This document shows, in pieces, positions 28,971 through 29,695 of a DNA stretch of 64,000 bases. Source of the DNA: Escherichia coli (GTDB taxonomy: Bacteria > Pseudomonadota > Gammaproteobacteria > Enterobacterales > Enterobacteriaceae); the NCBI RefSeq assembly GCF_003019035.1, contig NZ_CP027447.1, one strand, 5' to 3'. Made by a program: the position numbers and the translations under genes. The notes under the pieces were generated by a model that had not been told where the DNA came from, did no database searches, and saw nothing but the letters and a program-made list of their open reading frames with translations. Numbering within the stretch: the first letter of the stretch is position 1; every line of letters starts with the position of its first letter.

Positions 28971-29249
28971 ATGACAGATGAAGAGTTGTGCCGGGCCATT
29001 TTAGAAACGGAACAAGGTAAAGCTGATGTACTTGGTGGTGGCGTTTTTAAAAAGCGCCTTCACCGAAATCGTGAGCGTGCAATTATTCTGGCAAAAGGGG
29101 GAAGCAATTGGTTTTACACGTTTTTATATGCAAAACAGGATATGTCGAACATCAATAGTCAGGAACTGGCTGGGTTTCGTGAACTTGCAAAGCATTATGC
29201 CTTCCTGACGAAAGCCCAACTAACAGCAATGATTACACTAAAGAACTGA
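28971..29249 (+). CDS. Putative type II toxin, RelE/HigB-superfamily-like (92 aa)
   Basis: Small basic protein (KKRLHRNRERAIILAKGGSNWFYTFLYAKQDMSNI) immediately upstream of, and 12 nt from, a small HTH gene: a toxin-first two-gene arrangement typical of higBA-like modules. Family assignment from recall only. Confidence 0.55.
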   Translation: MTDEELCRAILETEQGKADVLGGGVFKKRLHRNRERAIILAKGGSNWFYTFLYAKQDMSNINSQELAGFRELAKHYAFLTKAQLTAMITLKN

Positions 29250-29261
29250 CAGAGATCTGCT

Positions 29262-29585
29262 ATGACTGCAAAAACTAAATTTAAAAGTCCTGCATTTGAG
29301 GCTATTCACAGCGCAGCGGCTGGATTGTCCAGCGTCGATGCTATTTCTGCCGAAACAATGCGTACTTTTGACAAAGCCTGCCTGACCAGCGTGCAAGACT
29401 TACAACCTGTTGAGATAAAAGCACTGCGGGAAAAATTAAAAGTGAGTCAACCCGTCTTCGCTCACTATCTCAATACCAGCGTTTCAACTGTACAAAAATG
29501 GGAAAGTGGCGCTAAACGCCCCAATGGCATTTCATTAAAACTGCTCAGCATTGTGCAAAAACACGGGCTGGAGGTGCTGCTGTAA
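29262..29585 (+). CDS. Putative antitoxin / XRE-family HTH DNA-binding protein (107 aa)
   Basis: C-terminal helix-turn-helix (LREKLKVSQPVFAHYLNTSVSTVQKWESGAKRPNGISLKLL) resembling the MqsA/YiaG-type HTH; tightly coupled to the upstream toxin-like ORF. Confidence 0.6.
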   Translation: MTAKTKFKSPAFEAIHSAAAGLSSVDAISAETMRTFDKACLTSVQDLQPVEIKALREKLKVSQPVFAHYLNTSVSTVQKWESGAKRPNGISLKLLSIVQKHGLEVLL

Positions 29586-29618
29586 ATAGAACGTAGATAA
29601 TGCGTTCACCTACTGTCA

Positions 29619-29695
29619 GTTCCAATACCGGATGCGGCGTGAACGCCTAATCCCCCCTACAGGTCAGGCGCGGTCTGTAGGCTGATAAGACGAAG
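29619..29695. repeat. REP/BIME-like extragenic palindromic element
   Basis: CCGGATGCGGCGTGAACGCCTAATCC followed by CCTACAGGTCAGGCGCGGTCTGTAGGCTGATAAGACG; resembles E. coli REP consensus units with imperfect inverted symmetry. Confidence 0.5.

Follow-up and report, generated by a model that had tools for sequence, protein, structure and literature searches.

A HigBA2-type toxin-antitoxin locus between nepI and yicN of Escherichia coli, very probably with a decayed toxin gene and an intact antitoxin gene

Does the pair of small open reading frames (ORFs) lying between nepI and yicN in a 64,000-nucleotide stretch of Escherichia coli DNA (contig NZ_CP027447.1; hereafter the window) encode a working toxin-antitoxin (TA) system? 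The two ORFs, of 92 and 107 amino acids (aa), are both on the plus strand and are separated by 12 nucleotides (nt). A preliminary description of the window had taken them for a toxin-first type II module of the HigBA/MqsRA kind. Our analysis indicates that the locus is very probably a HigBA2-type operon which has resided at this site since before the genera of the Enterobacteriaceae split, and of which the toxin gene has decayed in this strain while the antitoxin gene is intact. Both ORFs do exist at the 12-nt spacing described and neither is a chance ORF, as both have Pfam matches, but the 92-aa ORF is a fragment of a gene of 117-119 aa. It is a remnant and not a gene. The elements of the pair in the window are as follows.

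28920-29278, plus strand: higB2-like toxin pseudogene (PF06296), full ancestral extent, from alignment to the intact O157:H7 gene
28920-28922, plus strand: ancestral start codon site, ATA in the window and ATG in Citrobacter koseri and Salmonella
28941-28943, plus strand: nonsense codon at codon 6 (W6*), TGG>TAG, replacing the invariant Trp of the FKTKWF motif
28971-29249, plus strand: 92-aa ORF, an internal fragment of the toxin frame whose ATG is an Ile>Met substitution
28971-28973, plus strand: that substitution (I17M), ATA>ATG, which makes the apparent start of the 92-aa ORF
29234-29235, plus strand: site of a deletion of 1 base pair (bp), ATTAACAC > ATTACAC, a frameshift that costs the protein its conserved C-terminal KELxEI strand
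29262-29585, plus strand: higA2-like antitoxin gene, intact, 107 aa, with HTH_3 and MqsA_antitoxin matches; residues ~46-102 form an XRE-type helix-turn-helix (HTH) domain and residues ~1-45 a presumed toxin-binding segment

The lesions in the window were read base by base against the intact allele of O157:H7. In intact alleles the toxin has 117-119 aa and its gene shares 17 nt with the antitoxin gene; O157:H7 FRIK944 has such an allele, of 117 aa and with this overlap. The 12-nt gap between the ORFs of the window is a by-product of the 1-bp deletion, which shifts the toxin frame so that the protein would end in ...ITLKN in place of ...INTKELTEICYDCKN. The product of the 92-aa ORF is basic (computed isoelectric point 9.4) and matches Pfam family PF06296 ('RelE') with E=4.5e-28 over model positions 19-114 of 120, so that model positions 1-18 and the conserved C-terminus are missing. 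The full-length domain was found in other E. coli such as O157:H7 but not in the window copy. In an alignment of 63 homologues, the N-terminal FKTKWF and the C-terminal KELxEI motifs are nearly invariant and neither is found in the 92-aa ORF. The lost segments correspond to beta-strands 2-6 and 110-115 in an AlphaFold model of the 119-aa form (predicted local distance difference test score, pLDDT, 87). The Ile>Met change at 28971 that supplies the ATG is lineage-specific. The antitoxin of the window differs from the O157 protein by a single residue. Judged from these sequence changes, the window copy most likely makes no active toxin and the remnant has most likely lost its toxicity. Since the toxin gene carries a stop and a frameshift and the antitoxin gene is intact, the window copy is probably non-functional as a poison-antidote pair. 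E. coli SCU-301 has exactly this spacer over its full length (window 28741-29700, 100% identity), and the RefSeq/PGAP label of its toxin, mapped to window 28971-29278, is a 'frameshifted' pseudogene. Submitters' annotations name the 92-aa ORF 'hypothetical protein', as opposed to the pseudogene call of PGAP.

The start of the toxin gene is affected more widely. The ancestral start lies two codons upstream of the GTG used by PGAP for O157, and it is ATA in both O157 (L003, 3180-3182) and the window. The GTG start of O157 is 16 nt from the Shine-Dalgarno sequence. Even the 'intact' ATA alleles of the O157 type may be poorly translated into toxin.

How common these alleles are was surveyed in 5426 complete E. 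coli genomes, with the cassette scored as present at 80% coverage or more. It was found in 1716 of the 5426, always chromosomal and in single copy, and was missing from K-12, BL21 and HS. This presence/absence survey had been proposed in the preliminary description, which had also taken K-12 to have no such pair at this position, correctly as it turned out. Its view that the pair is probably accessory holds in so far as the locus is variable, but not in the sense of a recent acquisition, as shown by the synteny across genera given below. Alleles were counted by short diagnostic queries that match the exact allele only. At the start codon (28920-28922), the ATA of the window occurs in 629 genomes versus 1082 with ATG, so that ~37% of the carriers (629 of ~1711) have lost the start. 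At codon 6 (28941-28943), the TAG stop of the window was counted in 137 genomes versus 1574 with TGG (Trp). The ATG (Met) at codon 17 (28971-28973), where only the window allele was counted, occurs in 161 genomes, and the 1-bp deletion after 29234 in 130 genomes versus 1572 without it. The window allele is thus a minority, derived and doubly disabled allele. As marginal totals, the counts are consistent with a stepwise series of ATA, then I17M, then W6*, then the deletion. Across E. coli, the site shows a graded decay from an intact ATG, through start loss and then nonsense plus frameshift, to near-complete deletion as in K-12.

PF06296 is present in all 120 toxin homologues listed, and Vibrio cholerae HigB2 itself matches this family (E=3.3e-8); the query sequence used is identical to PDB 5ja9_C. 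The AlphaFold2 model of the intact 119-aa allele (same pLDDT) adopts a RelE-like alpha/beta fold of the RelE/ParE superfamily (BECR fold). The top Foldseek matches of this model in the PDB are HigB2 structures (8a0x_C, 5ja9 and 5mje; probability 0.99-1.0, ~20% identity), and the top list also includes Mycobacterium tuberculosis HigB1, Streptococcus pneumoniae HigB and YoeB. The catalytic residues of V. cholerae HigB2 are K49, R51, R64, Y82 and K84 (PMC5416850; PMC10098735). In hhalign and in a pairwise alignment, in which the two toxins align weakly, the KKR (K44/R46) and YAK (Y70/K72) motifs of the enterobacterial toxin align with K49/R51 and Y82/K84, whereas R53 was placed by eye only as the counterpart of R64. 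A survey of TA systems by Gerdes (2025) describes PF06296 as comprising toxins named HigB2 or RelE that are ribosome-dependent, mRNA-degrading and encoded toxin-first (PMC11980606). No NCBIfam model matches either the 92-aa or the 119-aa form. Among PHROG families, the toxin weakly matches phrog_5869.

The 107-aa antitoxin matches HTH_3 (E=1.2e-7, residues 52-96) and the HTH part of MqsA_antitoxin (E=1e-5) in Pfam, and among solved structures its best match is HigA2 of V. cholerae (5jaa, E=8e-10, residues 46-102). Its N-terminal 45 residues are conserved among enterobacterial orthologues. The protein has the layout of HigA2, a C-terminal HTH_3 domain preceded by ~40 non-HTH residues; in HigA2 itself, a disordered N-terminal segment neutralises the toxin and the C-terminal HTH serves for dimerisation and DNA binding (PMC5416850). 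The proposed profile search of both proteins has thus yielded the PF06296 toxin family and an HTH_3 antitoxin, although the toxin ORF proved to be incomplete. The module is of the HigBA kind (HigBA2/PF06296 plus an XRE-HTH antitoxin), as had been suggested, but it is not of the MqsRA kind. The antitoxin scores 41.1 bits against a cut-off of 61.8 for MqsA (TIGR03830 / PF15731) with only profile positions 47-119 matching, it has a single Cys and no N-terminal CxxCG...CxxCG zinc domain, and the toxin is not MqsR. Nor is it the YiaG-type protein it had been called, since it reaches 29.2 bits against a cut-off of 110 for YiaG (NF007481). NadS (NF041265) was rejected as well with 41.3 bits against 60. 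The antitoxin also matches the PHROG family phrog_2104, of unknown function, over its full length (E=1e-26), so phage-borne relatives of the antitoxin exist.

The two genes have the layout of a type II operon, being small, adjacent and co-oriented with a 17-nt overlap in intact alleles, and this layout is the same in five genera. Three candidate signals precede them.

28872-28900: palindrome TAAAGTATTGCAC-TTG-GTGATATACTTTA, found by an inverted-repeat search, candidate operator of the HTH antitoxin
28889-28897, plus strand: extended -10-like box TGATATACT inside the right arm of the palindrome, read from the sequence, candidate operon promoter
28906-28909, plus strand: Shine-Dalgarno sequence AGGA, 10 nt before the ancestral start codon

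The palindrome core AGTAT.GCAC-N3-GTG.TATACT is kept in C. koseri and Salmonella whereas the rest of the spacer has diverged, and TATACT and ACAGGA are invariant in a four-genus alignment. Consensus scans (-35/-10) found no promoter or terminator in 28700-29750. The position of a conserved palindrome over a -10-like box fits autorepression by the HTH antitoxin, by analogy with the Acinetobacter and Coxiella systems in which such autorepression was shown (PMC5906591, PMC10098735). Direct repeats in the region are short two-copy matches and were treated as chance.

We propose that in the intact form one promoter overlapping the palindromic operator would drive both genes. The first would encode a 119-aa PF06296 toxin which, judged from its homologues HigB2 of V. 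cholerae and ToxP of Coxiella, is a putative ribosome-dependent mRNA endonuclease. The second, overlapping it by 17 nt, would encode the 107-aa antitoxin, whose N-terminal segment is predicted to wrap and inactivate the toxin, while repression of the operon would fall to the dimer of its C-terminal HTH. The lineage of the window has lost the ATG start to ATA, has gained a stop at codon 6 and has lost the C-terminal strand through the 1-bp deletion, which most likely leaves an orphan autorepressor gene beside a toxin pseudogene.

The age of the locus was judged from relatives. The pair was found at nepI-yicN in C. koseri, Klebsiella oxytoca and the cryptic Escherichia sp. E4742, each time with the 17-nt overlap and with sizes of 119 aa (117 aa as called in E4742) for the toxin and 107 aa for the antitoxin. 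In Salmonella the pair adjoins nepI. Toxin identity to O157 is 70% in C. koseri and 68% in Salmonella, and the corresponding values are 84% and 79% for the antitoxin, 87% and 86% for NepI, and 71% and 61% for YicS; YicN, compared for C. koseri only, is 83% identical. The divergence of the pair is therefore within the range of the flanking genes, bracketed by nepI and yicS. Ratios of nonsynonymous to synonymous substitution (dN/dS) between genera are ~0.06-0.075 for the toxin and ~0.03 for the antitoxin; as dS is saturated, these values are qualitative only, and in that qualitative sense they suggest purifying selection on both genes between genera. Because of the synteny across genera and the flank-like divergence, we consider the pair an old resident of nepI-yicN that was lost by most E. 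coli. In K-12, 41 nt of unrelated filler (L002, 3047-3087) stand in place of the ~840-nt cassette, and 19 nt of this filler match the toxin gene at window 29004-29022 with 17 of 19 identities on the same strand and in collinear position (9 of 2000 shuffles were as good). The filler is probably a relic and the cassette was probably lost by deletion in K-12.

The synteny at nepI-yicN is limited to the Enterobacteriaceae. In Dickeya fangzhongdai (L010, 3501-4167), the same pair (119 aa and 107 aa, overlapping by 17 nt) has other neighbours, namely crp, argD-like and pabA-like genes, and does not adjoin nepI. In the collections searched, no close homologue of the toxin was found on enterobacterial plasmids or in phages, the only close matches being mislabelled chromosomal records, and a plasmid or phage origin within the Enterobacteria was rejected on this ground.

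The contrast between a decayed toxin gene and a kept antitoxin gene may be due to neutral decay of recent date or to the antitoxin having been domesticated. An alternative to our reading is therefore that the antitoxin has been retained for a role of its own, as a host regulator or for 'anti-addiction' against incoming homologous toxins, with loss of the toxin being adaptive. On the branch leading to the window the antitoxin has one amino acid change, compared with three substitutions and two disabling lesions in the toxin, and both the loss of the toxin ATG in over a third of the carriers and the full-length phage relatives of the antitoxin (phrog_2104) would suit such a role. On the other hand, the collections hold no close toxin homologue on enterobacterial plasmids or phages that the antitoxin could neutralise, the lesions, confined to 130-137 genomes, may be so recent that the antitoxin has had no time to decay, and the candidate operator of its own operon is the sole target known. 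We regard this alternative as doubtful. Its extension to the species, in which the module is being domesticated in E. coli by stepwise attenuation of the toxin while the antitoxin has a selected host regulatory or anti-addiction role, appears quite improbable.

Several observations weigh against the reading of an old HigBA2-type operon with a dead toxin gene, and they should be given together. The likeness between the toxin and V. cholerae HigB2 in sequence is weak (hhalign probability 2.8%), and no PDB sequence matched the toxin at E<=10 with phmmer or with a 15-sequence profile; the mechanism assigned to it is drawn from shared Pfam membership, a modelled fold and two short motifs, and is accordingly to be read as putative. 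The beta2-beta3 loop is shorter in the enterobacterial toxins than in V. cholerae HigB2, where replacement of this loop lowered the activity 120-fold (PMC5416850), and toxicity may be low even for the intact enterobacterial alleles. The allele counts are marginal totals per site and not joint genotypes genome by genome. No experimental study of this E. coli locus turned up in literature searches. Finally, the KKR and YAK motifs are still present in the 92-aa ORF, its ATG is preceded by a weak AGG, and it is called on at least 1000 contigs, so some residual product may be made from it.

These last points lead to the alternative that the pair still works in this strain, with translation restarting at the ATG at 28971 to give a truncated but active 92-aa toxin of RelE fold that is held in check by the antitoxin. 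The two retained motifs are the putative catalytic ones, the ATG is an innovation of the same lineage (161 genomes), the AGG stands 10 nt upstream of it and the antitoxin is intact. However, strand beta1 and helix alpha1 (residues 1-18) as well as the C-terminal strand, all nearly invariant and part of the modelled sheet, are lost, and the presence of two disabling lesions, independent of each other, in a single gene is what one typically sees under relaxed selection. PGAP also calls a pseudogene. A restarted working toxin is thus very unlikely, and the decayed HigBA2-type operon remains our preferred reading.

Another alternative is that anti-phage abortive infection is the main function of the module where it is intact. 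Toxins of the RelE/ParE superfamily are used in defence systems (PMC11980606), and the presence/absence pattern in E. coli is like that of many defence genes. The PADLOC defence models gave no match for the toxin and only weak generic HTH matches for the antitoxin. In addition, the pair occupies a fixed, syntenic, non-mobile site across genera with vertical-like divergence, unlike a defence island, and the toxin is broken in this window; abortive infection as the main function is accordingly most improbable. That the toxin is a ParE-like gyrase poison and not an mRNA endonuclease is extremely unlikely, for although the RelE/ParE superfamily shares one fold and Pfam names separate its activities poorly (PMC11980606), translation is the target of the PF06296 members tested so far, HigB2 of V. 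cholerae and ToxP of Coxiella (PMC5416850, PMC10098735), HigB2 and HigB1 head the structural matches while ParE ranks much lower, and the KxR and YxK motifs, putatively equivalent to the catalytic ones of HigB2, are conserved.

For the decayed HigBA2-type operon, the practical consequence is to leave the 92-aa ORF out of counts of toxin genes, which matters little beyond annotation. The decay series at one fixed site is a possible small test case for the loss of TA systems and for the retention of orphan antitoxins by selection.

The surroundings of the pair in the window comprise the two flanking genes, which are conserved backbone, and an element resembling a repetitive extragenic palindromic (REP) sequence.

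27508-28692, minus strand: nepI, purine ribonucleoside efflux pump, left flank; RefSeq annotation of an identical record mapped to the window
~29627-29700: REP-like element made up of a full unit and a partial, inverted one; the antitoxin and yicN genes converge on it
29701-30153, minus strand: yicN (DUF1198), right flank

The ORF of nepI in the window has 410 aa compared with 394 aa in RefSeq (SCU-301) and 396 aa in K-12/O157, with an upstream stretch at 28693-28740, and that of yicN has 159 aa compared with 150 aa annotated, with an upstream stretch at 30154-30180. The adeQ ORF counts 470 aa from a GTG compared with 444 aa annotated. In all three genes the excess in length is a start-codon ambiguity only.

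To the left of nepI, an uninterrupted ORF of 4194 aa (window 14722-27306, minus strand) lies immediately adjacent. It has a LysM/inverse-autotransporter region at the N-terminus and contains ~30 Ig-like repeats, nearly identical to one another and each of ~100 aa. Its match in SCU-301 is iatC in RefSeq, where it is flagged as frameshifted and incomplete. The IatC adhesin gene is absent beside nepI in K-12, O157:H7 FRIK944 and C. koseri. The pair was rejected as cargo of this IatC island, for the island is lacking in O157:H7, C. koseri, K. oxytoca and the cryptic Escherichia, all of which have the pair between nepI and yicN. It had also been speculated that the pair stabilises the neighbouring island or acts in phage defence or persistence. 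For the copy in the window, the premature stop and the frameshift in the toxin gene make all of these roles unlikely; as for the island, the pair is moreover found elsewhere without it, and as for defence, there is no meaningful PADLOC match.

The REP-like palindromic element reported just downstream of the pair is confirmed, with 25 of 26 positions matching the canonical REP 26-mer; no match was expected by chance. An Rfam search of the region gave sub-threshold matches only, among them naRNA4, a REP-derived family, at 26.6 bits and below the gathering score for this element. A hairpin is predicted for it, the energy of which is not exceptional (z=-1.1). The same element occurs at the same place in K-12, which has no cassette, so it was rejected as a part of the cassette and is backbone.

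The system is of a known kind and is already annotated in RefSeq. E. coli MqsRA (YgiUT) has the same toxin-first order and a similar antitoxin HTH (MqsA_antitoxin E=1e-5; PDB 3fmy, E=0.013), but differs in that the toxin here is not MqsR and the one-Cys antitoxin is without the N-terminal CxxC zinc domain. HigBA2 of the Acinetobacter baumannii plasmid pAB120 is a plasmid-borne HigBA-type module of reverse order and was used as a model of autoregulation; its antitoxin alone represses the promoter, with the toxin, an RNase, as co-repressor (PMC5906591). ToxP/AntitoxP (CBUA0028/CBUA0027) of the Coxiella burnetii plasmid QpH1 is also toxin-first, with 32-34% identity by tblastn over 94% of the toxin (E=2e-10). 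Experiments have shown that ToxP blocks translation and that AntitoxP neutralises it and binds both the toxin and the promoter (PMC10098735). Unlike the E. coli module, which is chromosomal and of which the collections searched hold no copy on enterobacterial plasmids, ToxP/AntitoxP is carried by a plasmid and is required for its maintenance.

V. cholerae HigBA2 (HigB-2/HigA-2; PDB 5JA8, 5JAA, 8A0X) has the same toxin-first order and the same PF06296 toxin family. HigB2 is the best structural match of the 119-aa toxin, whose KxR and YxK motifs are the putative counterparts of the catalytic ones of HigB2, and HigA2, which is the best PDB sequence match of the antitoxin, has the same size and the same layout of an N-terminal segment and a C-terminal XRE HTH. 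The differences lie in the toxins, which share ~20% identity and of which the enterobacterial ones carry an extra C-terminal helix and strand, and in the setting, as the pair described here occupies a fixed chromosomal site as opposed to a superintegron and has a toxin pseudogene in this window.

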